This document shows positions 3,243 to 64,000 of a stretch of 64,000 bases of DNA, piece by piece. A program made the position numbers and the translations under genes. Each line of letters starts with the position of its first letter. Positions within the stretch are counted from its first letter, which is position 1. The notes below the pieces were generated by a model. The model saw only the letters and a list, made by a program, of their open reading frames with translations, was not told where the DNA came from and did not search any database. This DNA is from Escherichia phage humlepung, in sequence record MN850564.1; one strand, written 5' to 3'.

Positions 3243-4595
3243 ATGTGGAATCCAATTGTTAATGTAGATATTACATTGAACACCGCAGGAACTACAAGAG
3301 AAGGTTTTGGTTTGCCACTATTCTTAGCTTCAACAGATAACTTTGAAGAAAGAGTACGTGGTTACACTTCCTTAACTGAAGTTGCTGAAGATTTCGATGA
3401 GAATACTGCTGCATATAAGGCTGCTAAACAACTTTGGAGTCAGACTCCTAAAGTAACTCAGCTTTATATCGGTAGACGCGCTATGCAGTACACTGTATCA
3501 ATTCCTGATGCCGTTACCGAAAGTACAGACTACTCAATTACTGTAGCTGTTGGCGGTGGAATTTCTCAACCATACCAGTACACAGCACAAGATTCAGACA
3601 CTGCTGAGGTAGTGTTGCAACAGTTTAAAACACAGATTGAAGCTGACCCAACAATCAAAGATAAGGTTTCTGTGAATGTAACTGGTAGCAATGGCTCTGC
3701 CACAATGATTATTACCAAAGCTGGTGATAATGACTTTGTGAAAGTAACAACCACAGCACAGACTGTATATATTGCAAGTACAACTGCTGATACAGCAGCA
3801 ACTGCTCTGGCAGCTATAGAAGCTTACTCTACTGACTGGTATTTCATTGCAGCAGAAGACAGAACTCAACAGTTTGTCTTAGCAATGGCTTCTGAGATTC
3901 AGGCTCGTAAGAAAATCTTCTTTACGGCTAACTCCGATGTAACAGCCCTACAAGGTACAGAATTAGCCAGTGCAAATGATGTTCCAGCACAGCTTGCTAA
4001 GAATATGTACACTCGTACAGTTTGCTTGTGGCATCACGCAGCAGCAGAAGATTATCCAGAGATGGCATACATTGCTTATGGTGCTCCATATGATGCAGGC
4101 TCAATTGCTTGGGGTAATGCTCAGCTAACTGGCGTAGCAGCTTCTCTACAACCACCTAATCAGAGACCTCTGACAAGTATTCAGAAGTCTGCTTTAGATG
4201 TACGTCACTGTAACTTTATTGACCTTGATGGTGGTGTTCCAGTGGTTCGTAGAGGGATTACTTCTGGTGGGGAATGGATTGATATCGTCCGTGGTGTTGA
4301 CTGGTTAGAATCAGACCTGAAAACTTCTCTGAGAGACTTGCTAATTAACCAGAAGGGTGGTAAGATTACTTATGATGATACTGGTATTACCCGTATTCGT
4401 CAAGTCATTGAAACCTCTCTGCAAAGAGCAGTCAACAGAAACTTCCTGTCATCTTACACAGTTAATGTTCCTAAAGCCTCTCAAGTTGCTTTAGCAGACA
4501 AGAAAGCACGTATCCTGAAAGATGTTACCTTCGCAGGTATCTTAGCAGGGGCTATCTTGGATGTTGACTTGAAAGGTACAGTGGCTTACGAATAA
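3243..4595 (+). CDS. tail sheath protein (putative)
   Basis: 450 aa; immediately upstream of a 148-aa tube-sized gene, chaperones and tape measure (myovirus order). Confidence 0.5.
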   Translation: MWNPIVNVDITLNTAGTTREGFGLPLFLASTDNFEERVRGYTSLTEVAEDFDENTAAYKAAKQLWSQTPKVTQLYIGRRAMQYTVSIPDAVTESTDYSITVAVGGGISQPYQYTAQDSDTAEVVLQQFKTQIEADPTIKDKVSVNVTGSNGSATMIITKAGDNDFVKVTTTAQTVYIASTTADTAATALAAIEAYSTDWYFIAAEDRTQQFVLAMASEIQARKKIFFTANSDVTALQGTELASANDVPAQLAKNMYTRTVCLWHHAAAEDYPEMAYIAYGAPYDAGSIAWGNAQLTGVAASLQPPNQRPLTSIQKSALDVRHCNFIDLDGGVPVVRRGITSGGEWIDIVRGVDWLESDLKTSLRDLLINQKGGKITYDDTGITRIRQVIETSLQRAVNRNFLSSYTVNVPKASQVALADKKARILKDVTFAGILAGAILDVDLKGTVAYE

Positions 4596-20581: not shown

Positions 20582-20881
20582 TTAATCTGCCAACCTTAAA
20601 TTGAAATTAACACCAAATTTTTCACACACTTCCAACATATACTCAAGAGAGACATTGCCAGTGAGATGGATTATGTTGGATACGCGAGCCTGAGAGATAC
20701 CACAAATTTTAGCAACTTGCTCTTGAGAAAGACCTCTGGATTTAATCTCTCTCTTAAAACGATGTGCAACGAAGTCTCTCATTTCGTCTACACCCATTGG
20801 ACAAATATAACTCTCCATTTCAGCCTCTCTATCAGCCTCCCAATCATCTTGTGGAGCATAAGGGTCAAAAGCTTCATTCAT
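20582..20881 (-). CDS. helix-turn-helix (XRE-like) DNA-binding protein
   Basis: LSQEQVAKICGISQARVSNI HTH; start moved from track TTG (20911) to ATG 20881 with RBS. Confidence 0.5.
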   Translation of the reverse strand: MNEAFDPYAPQDDWEADREAEMESYICPMGVDEMRDFVAHRFKREIKSRGLSQEQVAKICGISQARVSNIIHLTGNVSLEYMLEVCEKFGVNFNLRLAD

Positions 20882-21086
20882 CTTTCTTCTTCCGTTTGCG
20901 TGAAGTGTCAATCAATGAATCTATGTTTGTAGCCCTAACCTTTTCACGTTCATCGTTAAGATAATCATCAAGAGCCTTTTCAATCTGTGAATCATCTTGG
21001 CAGATAACTGTAAAGACTGTAAAGCCATCTGTATCATCAATTATCTTACCATAACCGCTTCTGGGATGTAACTTTTTAAGAGCCAT
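20874..21086 (-). CDS. hypothetical protein
   Basis: 70 aa; ATG 21086; basic C-terminus. Confidence 0.45.
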   Translation of the reverse strand: MALKKLHPRSGYGKIIDDTDGFTVFTVICQDDSQIEKALDDYLNDEREKVRATNIDSLIDTSRKRKKKDE

Positions 21087-27466: not shown

Positions 27467-27723
27467 TTTTACTCCCTCTAAAATCATTAACCTCATACAT
27501 TACTGCAAAAAATTATAAAAAGCAAGTTGACAATGTACTTGACAAGGTGTTAATCTTTGCGAAGTGGGTTTTTACTTAAAAGGTCACTTAACAGTTTAAC
27601 TATACAGATACTTTAAAACTCTTAAAAGATTATTTAATAGCTTTTAAAAAGCTTTAAAGTATAACGTATAGAATACGTTAAGATAAAAGATTAAAACTTA
27701 ATAGTTACTTAAAAGAGGCTTAC
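27467..27723. promoter_or_regulatory. divergent intergenic control region with palindromic operator-like sites
   Basis: Between divergent pol and plus-strand operons; TTGACA x2; palindromes AGCTTTTAAAAAGCT and AACGTATAGAATACGTT (the latter contains a TATAGAAT -10-like element). Confidence 0.5.
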
Positions 27724-28146
27724 ATGCAGAAAATGTTTGTTCACCCAGACATAGCTGACTTTGTTAGAGCTTTGCAGAAGTTGGAAGAACTTGACATTGC
27801 TGCTCAGCGGGAATATGCTCACCATCACAGGAGAATGGTTGATATACAACATGAAATAGAGTTGTCTGAAAACTATGAAGATGACTTAAAATGCTCTGTA
27901 TTTGAGCATATGAAAGATGTTGCTACAGCGAGACGTAAAGCTAAAGACACAGTTGCTTTACTAGATTCTCTTAAAAAGAGGTTGCAAAGTGGTACAGACC
28001 TGTGTAATCTAGCGTCACTGATTAACGATGTTGAAACTTCTTGGGATAGGCACTATTATCCACGTTCTGAAAAGACACTTGACTTTTCTTCATCCGAAAA
28101 CTTAAAATGTTCTAGAAAGAAACTTAACCAACTGAGAGAGAAATAA
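27724..28146 (+). CDS. hypothetical early protein
   Basis: 140 aa; RBS AGAGG. Confidence 0.5.
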   Translation: MQKMFVHPDIADFVRALQKLEELDIAAQREYAHHHRRMVDIQHEIELSENYEDDLKCSVFEHMKDVATARRKAKDTVALLDSLKKRLQSGTDLCNLASLINDVETSWDRHYYPRSEKTLDFSSSENLKCSRKKLNQLREK

Positions 28147-56545: not shown

Positions 56546-57331
56546 ATGGGTATTGTAAAAATAATCAATGGTGATATCTTTGCCGAATTTGATAAAGGTA
56601 AGTTTGACATCATCGGTCACGGTTGCAACTGTATGAATTTAATGGGTGCAGGTATCGCTGACAAGATTTCTAAACTTTACCCAAAAGCATATGAGACCGA
56701 TACAGAAGTTTATCTATATGCAGGTGGTATAGGACACAAACCCTGTGAAAATTTACTGGGTAATTTCTCTGTAGCACGTTTAAAACAAGGTCGAATAGCT
56801 AACCTTTACACTCAGCTTAAGACTGGTAAAGATGCCCGATACAGTGCTTTAGAATCATCTTTGAAACAGCTTAACAGATACTGTGAAGTCAATCAGTTGA
56901 AGAAAGTCGGGTTACCTATGATTGGCGCAGGTATCGGTGGACTAGACCCTCAAGCCGTCACAGTTATCATTAATCAGGTGATGAAGAGTGTAGATGTTTA
57001 TCTGTATGTCTACGAAGGAGAGATGTACCACAAGTTACGCTCAGGTTGGAATAACTACTGTGAACCAGAATACTTTGCAGGTGTAGTAATGTTCACAGAT
57101 GATACAGTTACCCTCTTCAGACGAAGAAAAGGTAAGATACATCAAAGTAACCCTCCGGTTGAGAAGATGTCTCTAAGTAACGCTCTAGTTACCCACCTGT
57201 CGAAGAGCAATCACAGAATTGCAGTAACATTTGGCAGTGATGCGGATACTTATATCTATGCAAGAACTGATGAGGATATCGAGTTAATCTTCTCTTCACC
57301 AGAGCTTACCTTCTTAGACGCAAAGAACTAA
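56546..57331 (+). CDS. macro-domain (ADP-ribose binding/hydrolase) protein with C-terminal extension
   Basis: N-terminus INGDIFAEF...DIIGHGCNCMNLMGAGIADKI fits the macro-domain GDI...NAAN...GGGV pattern; 261 aa. Confidence 0.55.
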   Translation: MGIVKIINGDIFAEFDKGKFDIIGHGCNCMNLMGAGIADKISKLYPKAYETDTEVYLYAGGIGHKPCENLLGNFSVARLKQGRIANLYTQLKTGKDARYSALESSLKQLNRYCEVNQLKKVGLPMIGAGIGGLDPQAVTVIINQVMKSVDVYLYVYEGEMYHKLRSGWNNYCEPEYFAGVVMFTDDTVTLFRRRKGKIHQSNPPVEKMSLSNALVTHLSKSNHRIAVTFGSDADTYIYARTDEDIELIFSSPELTFLDAKN

Positions 57332-57405
57332 GAAACTTCGTAGCATATTCACAATAGACTAAGCCTTTCTTATCTGGTAAATTTTTTCAGGTAAGGAGGG
57401 CTTTT

Positions 57406-57585
57406 TCATTTTAGAATTGTGCAGGTAGAGTTATGTAGAGAAATCTATAGAGAAAATTTTGAACTCCAAAGAGAAAATTCATTTTCAAACTGTGCAGGTA
57501 ATCTCCAAAGAGCTTTTTCATTTTCAAAACGTGCAGACCCCGCTCAGGTCGGGCAAGAAAAATCATTTTAGAATTGTGCAGGTAG
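57406..57585 (+). repeat. iteron-like direct repeats (4 copies of ~23 bp TCATTTT(A/C)(G/A)AA(T/C)(T/C)GTGCAGGTA)
   Basis: Copies at 57406, 57479, 57518, 57563; copies 1 and 4 identical; CTCCAAAGAG also repeated. Confidence 0.6.
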
Positions 57586-57600
57586 GTTTTTATAGACAGC

Positions 57601-57640
57601 CAGCCCAACCCCTCTCCCCCTCTTACTCCCCCTCTCCCCA
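57601..57640 (+). repeat. polypyrimidine C-rich tract
   Basis: CAGCCCAACCCCTCTCCCCCTCTTACTCCCCCTCTCCCC, between iterons and strong promoter. Confidence 0.5.
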
Positions 57641-57760
57641 AAAGTCAAGAGAAAAATTTGTAGCGGATTGAAAAATAATTCTTGATTTGCGTTCTGTTTT
57701 GTGGTAGTCGTGCGCACCCGTTTCATTACAGTTTTGCCAAAAATATTTTTAAGATTTTTA

Positions 57761-57852
57761 TTGACTCTTTGAACGTGGTTATCTAATATTTACATCAACG
57801 GGGAGGGAATGACCTTCCCCACTAAATAAAATCCTAAACTGGAGATTCAAAA
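57761..57852 (+). promoter_or_regulatory. cassette type 1 (promoter TTGACT-N17-TAATAT, 5-prime hairpin, conserved leader with GGAG)
   Basis: Hairpin GGGGAGGGAATGACCTTCCCC at 57800-57820; leader ACTAAATAAAATCCTAAACTGGAGATTCAAAAATG. Confidence 0.65.
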
Positions 57853-58236
57853 ATGGCATACCGCGCACCGAAATTCATCAATAAAGAAAATTTTCGTAAT
57901 GTATTAGAGAAGGTGCTTGATGAAAAATTTAACGGCAAAATAATTGTTGTTCACGCATACAATTTCAAGTATGATATCAACGGGAATAAAATCAACCATT
58001 ACACGGCAACTATGTTAGATGGCAATCTTTCAAGTGAAAAAGCCGTACTGAATGCACTTGCCGGACGTGGAAAAAACCTGATAAGATGCGATAAGAGACG
58101 TTATCAGGGTGGCGCATATGGTTACGATGATGCTATTTATCATCTTGAAAATATGGGCTATCAAGTAGAAAAAGCTGGAGTATCACAAATCATCGGCAGT
58201 GATGGCTATGTAACAATCTTCAAAATTAACAAATAA
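57853..58236 (+). CDS. cassette gene A, hypothetical
   Basis: 127 aa; starts ATG GCA in conserved leader. Confidence 0.55.
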   Translation: MAYRAPKFINKENFRNVLEKVLDEKFNGKIIVVHAYNFKYDINGNKINHYTATMLDGNLSSEKAVLNALAGRGKNLIRCDKRRYQGGAYGYDDAIYHLENMGYQVEKAGVSQIIGSDGYVTIFKINK

Positions 58237-60787: not shown

Positions 60788-60879
60788 TTGACACCGGTTT
60801 TTAGATAGATTAAATTACACATCAACGGGGAGGGAGTGACCTTCCCCACTAAGTAAAGTCCTAAACTGGAGATTCTAAA
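60788..60879 (+). promoter_or_regulatory. cassette type 1 (TTGACA-N17-TAAATT, hairpin, leader)
   Basis: Hairpin GGGGAGGGAGTGACCTTCCCC. Confidence 0.65.
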
Positions 60880-61083
60880 ATGGCTATTATTAACGGCTTA
60901 AACATTGAAACTACACACATCAAAGATATCAAAGTTGGCGATATAGTCCTTTCCCACGGCGTAGAAAAAACTGTCACTACAAAGGATATCAAAGAGGATT
61001 CTTTCATGGGTAGGACTCTCTTCGGTGATTCTTATTGCTTAGGGTATCTTGCAGTCTTAAAAGTTGTCAAAAATAACAAATAA
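60880..61083 (+). CDS. cassette gene H, small hypothetical
   Basis: 67 aa; MAII N-terminus. Confidence 0.5.
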   Translation: MAIINGLNIETTHIKDIKVGDIVLSHGVEKTVTTKDIKEDSFMGRTLFGDSYCLGYLAVLKVVKNNK

Positions 61084-62012: not shown

Positions 62013-62102
62013 ACAAGCCTGATAAAAATCTGTAAATTACTAATCAACGGGGAGGGAATGACCTTCCCCACTAAACAAAATCCTAAACTGGAGATTCAAA
62101 AA
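62010..62102 (+). promoter_or_regulatory. cassette type 1 (TAGACA-N17-TAAATT, hairpin, leader)
   Basis: Hairpin GGGGAGGGAATGACCTTCCCC at 62049-62069. Confidence 0.6.
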
Positions 62103-62444
62103 ATGGCTTATGTAACCGTAATTACCGATAAAGCTGGCGCATCTTGGTCAACTCAGGTTAGTGATAAGATGTCGCCTATGCAGTGCCTAAAATACTTTGA
62201 ACAGTGGAACAAAGGCGAGGACACAAGCCCCTTTCACGTAATGCAGATTATTCATGTAGACAATGAAGGGAAGAAAACAACTCTGAATAGTGAGTACTAC
62301 GCAAGCCGTTTTGAAACGAGAAGTAAAGCAATGAAGCTCTTACGTGAGGCCGGATATGGTCACATTGCCGCGATAATCTGGGATGACCTTCTAAAAAGTC
62401 AACGTATCAGCTATGTAAAGCCTGAAAAAATATTCATCAGTTAA
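62103..62444 (+). CDS. cassette gene K, hypothetical
   Basis: ATG 62103 (track ORF starts inside the hairpin at 62058); 113 aa. Confidence 0.5.
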   Translation: MAYVTVITDKAGASWSTQVSDKMSPMQCLKYFEQWNKGEDTSPFHVMQIIHVDNEGKKTTLNSEYYASRFETRSKAMKLLREAGYGHIAAIIWDDLLKSQRISYVKPEKIFIS

Positions 62445-62573: not shown

Positions 62574-62663
62574 TTGCAATCAGCTATCAAAACAAGTAAA
62601 TTACTAATCAACGGGAGGGATGACCTCCCCACTAAATAAAATCCTTAAACTAGGAGAGTCAAA
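62574..62663 (+). promoter_or_regulatory. cassette type 1 (TTGCAA-N17-TAAATT, hairpin, leader)
   Basis: Hairpin GGGAGGGATGACCTCCCC; additional TTGACA motifs at 62475-62495 upstream. Confidence 0.6.
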
Positions 62664-63194
62664 ATGAACAAGTTTAAAGCTATCAACTTCATTCGTTCAA
62701 ATGCTGTAATGTCAAAACCTGTAAAAGACACATACGAATTTCGCTGCAATGGGGTACACTTTGCAACCATCACTAAGTCAGAAAACGGGGCTTATTACGT
62801 ACATCGTCGTAATGTTGCAACCGTTGTAGTCTCTCACTTTATGCAAGCTGTAGCGGAGTTATTACCGTTATTCTTAGAGATTTATCTAGGTGAGTGTAAA
62901 AACGTTCGTAACCACGTTAAAAACCTTTTAAACGGTTATAAAATGGCTTATGAACGTTCTATCAAGTCCTTGAACAAGTTCTATAAATCCCCTGTAAATA
63001 CTGTTTCAATGGCTTACACTGTAAGCGGTGAGTTGGTTAGCCTCTTCGAAGTAGAAGAAATTGAACTATATGACTCACGTCCTAGCGGTTACTCTAAGAC
63101 ACTGGGAGAAGGATTATCTTTCAATATCAAGAACTTAGAAAAAACTTTAAAAGATATTGAAAAAGATATTGACGAGACAATCAAAAGTCTGTAA
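62664..63194 (+). CDS. cassette gene L, hypothetical
   Basis: 176 aa. Confidence 0.5.
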   Translation: MNKFKAINFIRSNAVMSKPVKDTYEFRCNGVHFATITKSENGAYYVHRRNVATVVVSHFMQAVAELLPLFLEIYLGECKNVRNHVKNLLNGYKMAYERSIKSLNKFYKSPVNTVSMAYTVSGELVSLFEVEEIELYDSRPSGYSKTLGEGLSFNIKNLEKTLKDIEKDIDETIKSL

Positions 63195-63260
63195 ATTGTC
63201 AATCAACGGGGAGGGAATGACCTTCCCCACTAAATGAAGTCCTAAACTGGAGATTCTAAA
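63169..63260 (+). promoter_or_regulatory. cassette type 1 (TTGACG-N17-TAAATT, hairpin, leader); -35 lies inside the 3-prime end of gene L
   Basis: Hairpin GGGGAGGGAATGACCTTCCCC at 63208-63228. Confidence 0.6.
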
Positions 63261-63509
63261 ATGGCTACTATCCGCGCAACTGTTAACGAATTCGGCTTCT
63301 ACTCTCTGGACGTTAAATTTGACCTTGTAGGTACTGATAACACCTTTGAAATGGTGAAAGGCCTTATCAGCCAGACCATCAGTGACTACAACCCCTCTGA
63401 TGAATTCTGGAAAGAAACAAAACAGGAAGTTCTCAAAGAGGGTTATACATACCACTACTGGGGTGAAAAAATTGTCTCCCTGTACTACGACAAAAAAGGC
63501 ACTAACTAA
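63261..63509 (+). CDS. cassette gene M, hypothetical
   Basis: 82 aa; MATI N-terminus. Confidence 0.5.
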   Translation: MATIRATVNEFGFYSLDVKFDLVGTDNTFEMVKGLISQTISDYNPSDEFWKETKQEVLKEGYTYHYWGEKIVSLYYDKKGTN

Positions 63510-63575: not shown

Positions 63576-64000
63576 GTCTTATCAAATCCCTTATACAACC
63601 CTTTCCCTTTCCTTTCCAGAATCTTATCAGACCTTAAAAAGCAATAACTCTATAGTCTACTCTATAGCCTTTTATCAAATCAACTTAAATATAAGCCCAT
63701 AACCCGAAAGGGAAGGGCAACCGTTTAAACGCTCTATAAAGCTCTATAACAGCCTTATCAACCTAACTTAAGGGATTGCATTAACTCACCCTAAAAAGCC
63801 CTTTATAAAGCTTCCCAGAGACTTAAAAGAATCTTATAAGGGTGTAAGCTTTATTATCTCGTTAGCTATCTTGTGAACTACTAAACAAGCCCCTTGATAG
63901 TAACTGAAAAGTATGTTATAGGGGCTTTAAAGTTACTTTGAAGTGGCTTAAAAGTTACGTAAATGCTAGCCCCCTTAACATTTTCTTAACAATTTCTTAA
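63576..64000. repeat. non-coding repeat-rich region (CTTATCA x5, CTCTATA x4, AAGTTAC x2)
   Basis: No ORF of 60 aa or more on either strand; short direct repeats and pyrimidine-rich tracts. Confidence 0.5.

Follow-up and report, generated by a model that had tools for sequence, protein, structure and literature searches.

The non-coding DNA ahead of the right-end gene cassette of Escherichia phage humlepung (MN850564.1), a member of Felixounavirus, carries an array of four direct repeats that, on the pattern of its conservation, is most likely a cis-acting DNA element made of same-orientation binding sites for one sequence-specific protein. The window, that is, the whole stretch of DNA analysed here (64,000 nucleotides), contains the array motif, TCATTTY-N6-GTGCAG(GT), in four + strand copies, all within 180 bp, and no further occurrence was found in the window or elsewhere in the complete Bas63 genome (~87 kb); the degenerate 19-mer at up to three mismatches is expected 0.29 times by chance in the whole 64-kb window, which has one unrelated three-mismatch match elsewhere. 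We tentatively favor a role for the array as a boundary or control element, which we regard as possible rather than probable. The binding of a protein to the array, the identity of that protein and the action of the complex are what we infer.

The first-pass annotation of this DNA had described four same-strand direct repeats separated by 39-73 bp, with identical first and last copies, and all of this holds: the cores start at + strand positions 57406, 57479, 57518 and 57563 (spacings of 73, 39 and 45 bp), and copies 1 and 4 agree over 23 nt. It had also taken CTCCAAAGAG to be repeated along with the cores, which is correct for copies 2 and 3 only, copies 1 and 4 having related purine-rich boxes in its place. 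The four units are as follows.

57389..57426, + strand: repeat unit 1, purine-rich box AGGTAAGGAGGGC, T-tract, core TCATTTTAGAATTGTGCAGGT (core 57406-57426).
57462..57499, + strand: repeat unit 2, box AACTCCAAAGAG (CTCCAAAGAG at 57464-57473), AAAAT, core TCATTTTCAAACTGTGCAGGT (57479-57499).
57501..57536, + strand: repeat unit 3, box ATCTCCAAAGAG (CTCCAAAGAG at 57503-57512), CTTTT, core TCATTTTCAAAACGTGCAG (57518-57536).
57546..57583, + strand: repeat unit 4, box AGGTCGGGCAAG, AAAAA, core TCATTTTAGAATTGTGCAGGT (57563-57583).

Each unit, 36-47 bp long, opens with a purine-rich box that is specific to the lineage, continues with an A/T tract of 4-5 bp and closes with a bipartite core, TCATTTY-N6-GTGCA(G/T), whose two conserved halves start 13 bp apart; the box of unit 4, AGGTCGGGCAAG, is homologous to the Erwinia-phage linker AGGTCTGGCAAG. 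A repeat search revealed direct repeats only, with no significant inverted repeats inside the array. A promoter within the repeats was rejected, the TAGAAT of copies 1 and 4 having no -35 element and not being kept in the other copies or in other phages. Sites for host factors (MarA/SoxS/Rob marbox, DnaA box, IHF, Fis, Fur, CRP and Chi), checked by eye against their consensus sequences, were likewise rejected; by the same check, the GCAC element of the marbox alone fits the array, the second marbox element being 1-2 bp out of register.

Conservation in related phages, which had been proposed as a check on the array, was observed: the number, order and orientation of the repeats are kept in four genera and in more distant relatives. 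The array occupies the same genomic position in ~289 phage records from four genera, with 3-6 copies, compared to 257 records with the capsid gene (megablast level), the two counts being nearly 1:1 in each host group, and it is apparently present in every Felix O1-like phage genome checked, once per genome. L028 and L029, considered as array-free comparators, turned out to be an unrelated phage and were uninformative. Among eight clade representatives the half-sites and A-box are 95-96% identical, as against 69% for the middle N6, 54% for the array spacers and 69% for the end of the neighboring gene. Four copies at near-constant spacing are kept even at flanking-protein identities of no more than 63-70%, and the array extends to Erwinia phages and to relatives whose flanking protein is 35-37% identical, the spacing sets being 73/39/45 bp (this genome), 75/41/45, 37/37/39 (Erwinia), 37/41/47/47/47 (L075) and 91/35/45 (L076). 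The core ends in T in every one of the four Erwinia copies and the six L075 copies and in G in all others, and the tract preceding the left half-site alternates between AAAAA and TTTTT among copies. The GTGCAT shared by all Erwinia and L075 copies is a sign of a co-evolving DNA site, and so is the AAAAA/TTTTT switch, since it is the same in duplex DNA and not in RNA.

Outside these phages, searches of the genomes of 185,579 bacterial species, of the PLSDB plasmids and of 5,426 E. coli genomes found no counterpart of the array; the bacterial genome scan gave seven matches, all of them perfect tandem repeats unrelated to the array and from taxa other than enterobacteria, and the non-Ounavirinae motif matches in IMG/VR, metagenomes and bacterial genomes were all in-frame coding repeats or unrelated satellites. 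The array is the most conserved non-coding element found in the region, and its conservation pattern is that of a DNA-level site. The first-pass annotation had offered a replication origin or a multi-site regulator binding region. Because the half-sites are far better conserved than the spacers and the array is kept across genera, the conservation pattern supports the multi-site binding region, whereas the origin gained nothing specific.

The region had also been described as having no credible ORF. Open frames do in fact cross the array, one on the + strand starting at a TTG (57459..57671) and others on the minus strand, but every coding test failed. A small protein gene with an internal peptide repeat, encoded either by the + strand ORF 57459-57671 or by minus-strand bas63_0096/0097 in Bas63, is therefore a reading that we consider extremely unlikely, even though stop-free frames of 70-97 codons occur on both strands in several clades, the 39- and 45-bp spacings are divisible by three, and ORFs are annotated here in Bas63 and other records. 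The + strand frame has neither an ATG nor a ribosome-binding site, it is interrupted by a TAG in VpaE1 and loses 2 bp in wV8, and the variable sites show no third-position excess (8/6/3 at third/first/second codon positions). The Moogle and Susp clades put the copies in different frames (41-bp spacing) with the DNA motif intact, and the spacings of 37/37/39 bp in Erwinia phages and 37/41/47 bp in L075 break any frame, the Erwinia set ruling out a repeated peptide. We conclude that the array is non-coding. The small ORFs that several records place over it are spurious, and caution is warranted in annotation.

To either side of the array lie features that bear on its possible role in transcription.

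56546..57331, + strand: upstream gene, 261-aa macro-domain protein, annotated 'phosphatase'.
57361..57412, + strand: intrinsic terminator, 17-bp stem (57361-57377 / 57387-57403) and T-tract TTTTTCATTTT.
57607..57641, no strand assigned: perfect homopyrimidine mirror repeat in the poly-C tract, 16-nt arms, 3-nt centre TTA.
57641..57690, no strand assigned: highly conserved non-coding block AAAAGTCAAGAGAAAAATTTGTAGCGGATTGAAAAATAATTCTTGATT, mean pairwise identity 0.90 across clades.
57761..57789, + strand: sigma-70-type promoter TTGACT-N17-TAATAT (promoter scan; annotated promoter in ASO1A).
57794..57852, + strand: leader hairpin and ribosome-binding module, recurring before several downstream cassette genes.
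57853..58236, + strand: first cassette gene, 127 aa, phrog_4495 (ORF map, PHROGs).

The macro-domain protein gene closes the rIIA-rIIB-PNK-spanin block. The terminator behind it, whose T-tract TTTTTCATTTT reaches into the left half of copy 1, folds at -24.9 kcal/mol (z=-6.2; 0/200 shuffles equally stable) and is annotated as such in the ASO1A record; in Si3-type phages its left arm is changed and the pairing preserved. Downstream, the promoter scan recovered the TTGACT-N17-TAATAT promoter already proposed for this DNA, which lies 179 bp past the array and drives the first right-end cassette gene, the opening member of a block of small + strand genes reaching the terminal repeat. The AT-rich stretch reported to lead into this promoter is present as well, but it is merely the upstream element of the promoter (0.2-0.6 percentile for low duplex stability, similar to other cassette promoters) and not the least stable DNA of the window. 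Copies of the leader module, 90-96% identical, are located near 60819, 62043, 62607 and 63202 (self-BLAST), and block AAAAGTCAAGAGAAAAATTTGTAGCGGATTGAAAAATAATTCTTGATT is retained in poly-C as well as alternative-allele phages. The distance from array to promoter is +173 to +179 bp in the Felix, Susp and Moogle groups and +204 bp in Erwinia phages; across the four genera the array thus holds a fixed place between the terminator T-tail and the promoter.

The array starts at the T-tail of the strong terminator that ends the delayed-early/middle rII-to-macro gene block and stands ~175-205 bp before the first strong sigma-70 promoter of the right-end block of small immediate-early genes. As a boundary or control element, it would bind a protein that acts as a roadblock reinforcing termination or that controls the early block, by silencing it or setting its timing. 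Downstream of the array, ORFs 13, 16, 20, 21 and 22 of Felix O1 peak 5 min after infection and ORFs 1-10, upstream of the array, peak at 10-25 min (PMC3185647), and the array separates these two sets of genes. Several observations speak against this role: at 175-355 bp from the promoter, the array is rather distant for simple repression, the other cassette promoters of this family stand without one, and an intrinsic terminator of this stability may need no reinforcement. Moreover, no binding partner emerged, the only recognisable DNA-binding protein of the window being an HTH regulator encoded 37 kb away (20582-20908, minus strand), and palindromes are the usual targets of such proteins. Its position by itself says little, since any single-copy element here would sit on the same boundary, and the TTAACA or TGTTAA repeats beyond the array in the relatives L105, L076 and L075 hint at a link to genome ends and not to transcription. 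As for the binding partner, the C-terminal domain of the macro-domain protein was considered and rejected, L105 having the array without the domain and L075 having it 2 kb from the gene.

The 40-nt C-rich tract pointed out after the repeats is likewise real (57600-57639; 27 C, 8 T, 4 A and 1 G) and begins 22-28 nt past the array in four genera. It contains the only mirror repeat of the window with arms of at least 10 nt, and the mirror symmetry of 57607-57641, together with a pyrimidine content of 86% overall, would suit H-DNA (triplex) formation. An obligatory part of the element it is not, for most sampled Felixounavirus records (~60% of relatives) carry an unrelated ~50-bp segment in its place. 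The contigs L014 and L015 both stop at 57629, one of them continuing into a Nextera adapter, and the mirror repeat seems to break assemblies.

Transcripts of these repeats could also be imagined to act as RNA, be it as a type III toxin-antitoxin decoy (ToxI-like), as a protein-sponge RNA or as a Rho-loading region, a reading that we judge very unlikely. Tandem units of 37-47 nt in 3-6 copies in non-coding phage DNA do resemble antitoxin repeat arrays, and the + strand transcript would be unusually unstructured before entering a C-rich, G-poor tract (27 C and 1 G of 40) suiting Rho loading. However, a strong terminator precedes the array and no promoter is directed into it, the repeats are non-identical, differing in the middle, and the A5/T5 switch is incompatible with a common RNA motif. 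Rfam yielded no match, ToxI included (E<=10), the fold z-scores were +1.75 and +1.10, and RNAalifold returned -7.3 kcal/mol with no compensatory pairs, and both a structured RNA and membership in a known RNA family were rejected; the C-rich tract, for its part, is replaced in most sampled Felixounaviruses. The searches of bacteria, plasmids and E. coli found no counterpart array and none beside a toxin gene, and the type III antitoxin mimic was rejected for lack of a bacterial or plasmid counterpart.

A replication origin or replication-control site, with the repeats serving as iterons for an initiator that might reside in a domain of some replisome protein, is rather unlikely in our estimation; as an origin, the site would melt with the aid of negative supercoiling behind the strong promoter, which fires away from the array. 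The asymmetric 19-21-bp core, the direct repeats in 3-6 copies at one locus per genome and the change common to all copies agree with this reading, and at least three direct repeats in one orientation at a single locus, as expected of iterons, are present here (four cores, + strand). The adjacent outward promoter is strong and the mirror repeat supercoil-sensitive, and this group of phages has no defined origin (PMC3185647), nor did we find a paper that supplies one. Conversely, the units are spaced irregularly (37-91 bp) and without the regular helical phasing of classical iterons at 20-24 bp, the GC skew is unchanged at 57.4 kb, and no exceptional AT-rich unwinding segment is nearby. The least stable DNA of the window at every scale is 27589-27710, situated between the DNA polymerase gene and a + strand block and accompanied by tandem TTGACA promoters and the GC-skew minimum, and 27.5-27.7 kb is a stronger candidate for a classical origin than the array. 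No Rep/O/DnaA-like initiator was found among ten neighbors in Pfam, ten proteins in PHROGs and the Bas63 annotation, many small proteins being uncharacterised. T7 replication starts at promoters and not at iterons. The replisome of these phages is T7-like (PMC3185647). The Bas63 knockout map, in which ~46-66 kb is uniformly non-essential, argues weakly in the same direction because it is gene-level and the site redundant. Separately, we note that the PhageMaP study of Bas63 gives no score for the array locus.

The array also stands in a fixed relation to the end of the genome, which is marked by one further feature.

63969..64000, + strand: left end of the direct terminal repeat (DTR), the physical genome end (MH571750 alignment); the window ends 32 nt in.

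MH571750 has an exact 613-bp prefix identical to its suffix, base 1 of which aligns to window position 63969, and the reported DTRs are 581-613 bp long (PMC6454146, PMC8303462, PMC4837284). The DTR lies 6.4 kb downstream of the array in this genome and 7.4 kb in Hena2, and from the array start to the right DTR end is ~7.2 kb of ~87.7 kb (~8%). A physical genome end inside the poly-C tract, suggested by the ends of L014 and L015, was rejected on the position of the MH571750 DTR.

These relations raise the idea of an element linked to the genome end, namely a recognition or assembly site for packaging or concatemer processing that once lay beside the DTR and was later separated from it by inserted cassettes, which we hold to be improbable. 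In its favor are the fixed polarity, the conserved position, with the array preceding the DTR by 6.4-7.4 kb in the Felix and Erwinia groups, and the TTAACA repeats (eight copies in L105) or TGTTAA-like repeats (L076, L075) that directly follow the array and resemble those filling the DTR. These phages also have no identified small terminase subunit (PMC3185647, PMC4837284). Against it, the DTR has a dense repeat set of its own, a more natural recognition signal, and the TTAACA run of L105 is not accompanied by the long series of TGTTAA that marks a real DTR. Known terminase recognition sites (such as lambda cosB, T7/T3 pac, P1 pac) lie within ~200 bp of the cut, whereas the cut site here is 6.4 kb from the array.

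By analogy with the injection stop of T5, the array might instead be a checkpoint for DNA entry, at which a host or ejected protein would pause transfer after the right-terminal ~7 kb; we give this very little credence. The non-coding repeats are better conserved than neighboring genes, lie ~8% from the end and bound small early genes with strong host-type promoters, properties that the T5 stop signal shares (bioRxiv 10.1101/866236). Yet the inverted repeats, palindromes and DnaA boxes of the T5 type are absent from the array (DnaA boxes judged by eye), the early genes here are transcribed toward the genome end, and L105 has almost no genes between the array and its putative end repeats; two-step transfer, moreover, is not known in any Ounavirinae. 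Taken more broadly, a polar checkpoint, whether an entry stop or an end-linked assembly site, that delimits the right-terminal ~7 kb (8%) with its immediate-early genes strikes us as a decidedly long shot. If true, it would explain the fixed polarity toward the end, the conservation above that of any neighboring gene, the location of the array next to TTAACA/TGTTAA terminal-type repeats in divergent lineages and possibly the clustering of contig ends just past the array, and the entry-stop version would mean that a contractile-tailed phage uses two-step transfer of the T5 kind.

Biocontrol and therapy are the uses for which Felix O1 and its relatives, classical typing phages, are now being isolated widely, and the Felix O1 genome paper states that the mode of temporal transcription regulation is not known and defines no origin (PMC3185647). 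Among the papers searched, none describes the array, which is apparently new to the literature. As a single-copy, subfamily-wide cis-site it offers a concrete handle, a 180-bp probe for the binding protein and a defined deletion target, and the difference between GTGCAG and GTGCAT is a natural specificity swap for recognition tests.

Compared with known systems, the array resembles the theta-type iterons (lambda ori with its four O-protein sites; P1, F, R6K and RK2) in its one-orientation cores of ~19-22 bp at a single non-coding locus, in a copy number that differs among relatives and in copies that change jointly between lineages, but differs from them in spacing (37-91 versus ~20-24 bp) and in having no recognisable initiator gene, outstanding AT-rich unwinding element, skew signal or plasmid sequence similarity. 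The T5 iss consists of inverted repeats of more than 1 kb, palindromes and paired DnaA boxes within a 10-kb terminal repeat, whereas the array, which lies outside a terminal repeat of 0.6 kb, comprises simple direct repeats over 180-260 bp; both are non-coding repeats better conserved than their neighbors, ~8% from the end, that bound early genes with host promoters. With ToxI and phage pseudo-ToxI decoys the array has in common a few direct tandem repeats of ~36-47 nt in non-coding phage DNA, but its units are non-identical and it is without promoter, Rfam match, conserved RNA structure or toxin-linked bacterial locus. Lambda cosB, with the R sites of the terminase small subunit, has three to four short asymmetric direct repeats tens of bp apart and lies within ~150 bp of cosN; the array is of similar build, and in divergent relatives abuts terminal-repeat-type repeats, although in the Felix and Erwinia groups it is 6.4-7.4 kb from the cut site. 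Finally, while this phage is strictly lytic, with no partition genes or matching regulator found and a single array rather than dispersed sites, the array is like the asymmetric operators of P1 C1 and the sopC/parC arrays (sopC having periods of ~40 bp) in its asymmetric, one-orientation sites, which in those systems assemble a higher-order protein-DNA complex.

The window derives from a Felix O1-like myovirus of the genus Felixounavirus, and the 561 bases surrounding the array show 95-99% identity to dozens of phages with deposited sequences. The array, four direct repeats with the core TCATTTY-N6-GTGCA(G/T), sits within a 521-bp intergenic gap.

Features of the array locus (window coordinates)
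ending at 57331: upstream gene, 261-aa macro-domain protein (Pfam Macro)
immediately before copy 1: strong intrinsic terminator with a 17-bp stem (-24.9 kcal/mol, z = -6.2)
57406, 57479, 57518 and 57563 (starts), + strand: repeat copies 1 to 4, spacing 73, 39 and 45 bp
57600-57639: C-rich tract, 27 C and 1 G in 40 bases
57607-57641: perfect mirror repeat with 16-nt arms, in the C-rich tract
57761-57789, + strand: promoter TTGACT-N17-TAATAT (promoter scan)
57853 (start), + strand: first member of an extended series of small + strand genes (ORF map)

The four copies lie exactly where the first-pass annotation had placed them, and, as it had noted, copy 1 matches copy 4 at all 23 nt. With three mismatches allowed, chance would yield 0.29 matches in the whole window; we observed four within 180 bp, all on the + strand. 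The T-tail of the terminator is the left half of copy 1. In the window phage the identity of copy 1 (57406-57428) to copy 4 (57563-57585) includes the variable middle bases, and since copy 1 differs (TCATTTCAGGATT...) in most relatives, this pattern suggests gene conversion between the two copies.

Among 26 related loci taken from IMG/VR, all carry the array in the same order and with near-identical spacing, even in clades where identity of the flanking protein drops to 63-70%. Mean pairwise identity over eight clade representatives was 0.96 for the left half-site, 0.95 for the right half-site and 0.96 for the CTCCAAAGAG box, as against 0.69 for the six bases separating the half-sites, 0.54 for the array spacers and 0.69 for the end of the neighbouring gene. 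Sensitive BLAST matched the array in 289 phage records and megablast-level searches matched the capsid gene in 257, with counts nearly 1:1 per host group; the surplus consists mainly of 28 Erwinia phages (Kolesnikvirus), in which four tandem units spaced 37, 37 and 39 bp occupy the same syntenic place and GTGCAT replaces GTGCAG in every copy. The array extends to more distant relatives that share rIIB/PNK synteny (flanking protein 35-37% identical), and copy number is four in the divergent lineages L076 and L105, six in the divergent lineage L075 and three in Si3-type phages. In the consensus from 39 units in 10 phages, a purine-rich box specific to the lineage precedes an A/T tract of 4-5 bp, after which come TCATTTY, six AT-rich bases and GTGCA(G/T). 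Neither the rest of the window nor the rest of the complete Bas63 genome contains the motif. From the conservation pattern and the base change common to all copies, we infer that the array is bound by a protein. In one IMG/VR contig (L017), unrelated GC-rich sequence takes over mid-array just before copy 4, from about position 4000 (window ~57553 onward); chimeric assembly is the probable cause.

Both strands have frames without stops running through the array, and in some records ORFs are annotated there, but these frames fail coding tests, which rules out a coding sequence. The + frame has neither an ATG nor a ribosome-binding site, and in clades where the spacing is 41 bp the copies no longer share one reading frame. 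An in-frame stop occurs in VpaE1, and wV8 has lost 2 bp. Variable sites are not enriched at third positions (8/6/3 for third/first/second), and the spacings of distant relatives (37/37/39 and 37/41/47) cannot keep frame. The small ORFs annotated over the array in deposited genomes, such as bas63_0096/0097 (Bas63, MZ501086 64142-64457, window ~57411-57726) and those in Coenus (PV037719 4483-4689), are very likely spurious. A structured RNA was likewise ruled out: shuffled sequence folds at least as well as either strand (z = +1.75 and +1.10), for seven divergent arrays RNAalifold gave -7.3 kcal/mol with no compensatory pairs, and no Rfam family matched even at E <= 10. Depending on the copy, AAAAA or TTTTT precedes the left half, a switch that is equivalent in duplex DNA and not in RNA, and we regard a role at the RNA level as very improbable. 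An antitoxin-type decoy, a host site and a plasmid site were also rejected, as no relative emerged when 185,579 bacterial species genomes were scanned for a two-copy pattern or when BLAST was run against 72,556 plasmids and 5,426 complete E. coli genomes. Relaxed scanning of IMG/VR and JGI metagenomes yielded Ounavirinae arrays and otherwise only in-frame coding repeats and satellites that are unrelated to them. The repeat list in the Felix O1 genome paper starts at 24 bp and does not include those of the array (PMC3185647), nor were their sequences found printed in any paper searched, and the array is undescribed within the limits of that literature.

By RT-PCR in Felix O1, ORFs 13, 16, 20, 21 and 22, downstream of the array, belong to the 5-min class, and ORFs 1-10, upstream of it, peak at 10-25 min (PMC3185647); the array, just behind a strong terminator, thus occupies the border between temporal classes. 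Downstream, a sigma-70 promoter comes next, +173 to +179 bp away in the Felix, Susp and Moogle groups and +204 bp away in Erwinia phages. Based on this position, the terminator and the promoter distance, we tentatively favour a reading in which the array would be a protein-bound boundary or control element. A T5-like entry stop seems a most doubtful alternative.

The first-pass annotation had proposed a replication origin or a multi-site regulator-binding region, and the origin half of this proposal gained no specific support. GC skew does not change sign at 57.4 kb (it does at ~18 kb and ~28 kb, tracking gene orientation), the AT-rich patch by the array amounts to no more than the upstream element of the promoter (0.2-0.6 percentile, like other cassette promoters), neither the neighbours nor a curated annotation include a recognisable initiator-like protein, the unit spacing is unlike that of classical iterons, and the Felix O1 replisome is T7-like (PMC3185647). 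The least stable DNA of the window at 40-, 60- and 100-bp scales (27589-27710) lies in a divergent, ~80% AT intergenic region by the DNA polymerase gene (27496-27724). With its tandem TTGACA promoters, several CTTAAAAG-type repeats and the lowest cumulative GC skew, this region is the better candidate for a classical origin. We consider an origin or replication-control role for the array possible but unlikely.

The C-rich tract begins 22-28 nt past the array and holds a mirror repeat unmatched in size in the 64 kb, by its sequence a textbook case of the H-DNA-forming type; as + strand RNA it would be C-rich and G-poor. Erwinia phages have a shorter tract. The segment after copy 4 (57586-57640) exists as two alleles: either the poly-C mirror repeat or, unrelated to it, a G-rich segment of ~50 bp (GGTGGGTGCAGGTGGGGATGTCGCC...) that contributes one extra GTGCAGGT half-site and is exchanged at exact boundaries within conserved sequence (L002, L013, L018, L019 and Bas63 64317-64370). 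The majority (~60%) of sampled GenBank Felixounaviruses carry the alternative, 36 of 60 evenly sampled records covering only 81-83% of the query, in two pieces, so the poly-C tract is dispensable for the array.

Two contigs share their last base within the poly-C tract, and one of them continues into Nextera adapter, but the tract was rejected as the physical genome end because the direct terminal repeat (DTR) begins at window 63969. MH571750, analysed with PhageTerm (PMC6454146), has an exact 613-bp terminal repeat whose first base aligns there; terminal repeats of 581 and 608 bp are reported for relatives, the latter determined experimentally. This puts the array 6.4 kb upstream of the terminal repeat (7.4 kb in Erwinia phage Hena2), ~8% of the genome from the right end. 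The DTR (left end at window 63969-64000, continuing past the window; MH571750 1-613; Hena2 1-870) is filled with 3-6 TTAACA copies followed by 13-18 TGTTAA/CTTGTTAG copies, an architecture with which the Hena2 record also starts, and these repeats are presumably packaging or end-processing signals. As TTAACA or TGTTAA-like repeats, similar to those of the DTR, immediately follow the arrays of L105, L076 and L075, an end-linked role in packaging or processing was considered; we judge it improbable. Unusually many independent contigs and records end at or just past the mirror repeat or shortly after the array (window 57629-57690; L014, L015, L024, L074, L075, L128 and GenBank MT446388). These ends are not explained by repeats, since sequence that recurs elsewhere in the genome does not begin until 57792. 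They are probably due to the effect of the homopyrimidine tract on coverage or assembly; a nick or fragile site in virion DNA is a less likely cause.

A hairpin and ribosome-binding leader recurs at 90-96% identity before several small genes of the right-end block (57794-57860, 60819-60884, 62043-62110, 62607-62664 and 63202-63265). In T4-type phages, promoter/stem-loop cassettes are thought to mediate gene shuffling, and the right-end leader repeats resemble such cassettes.
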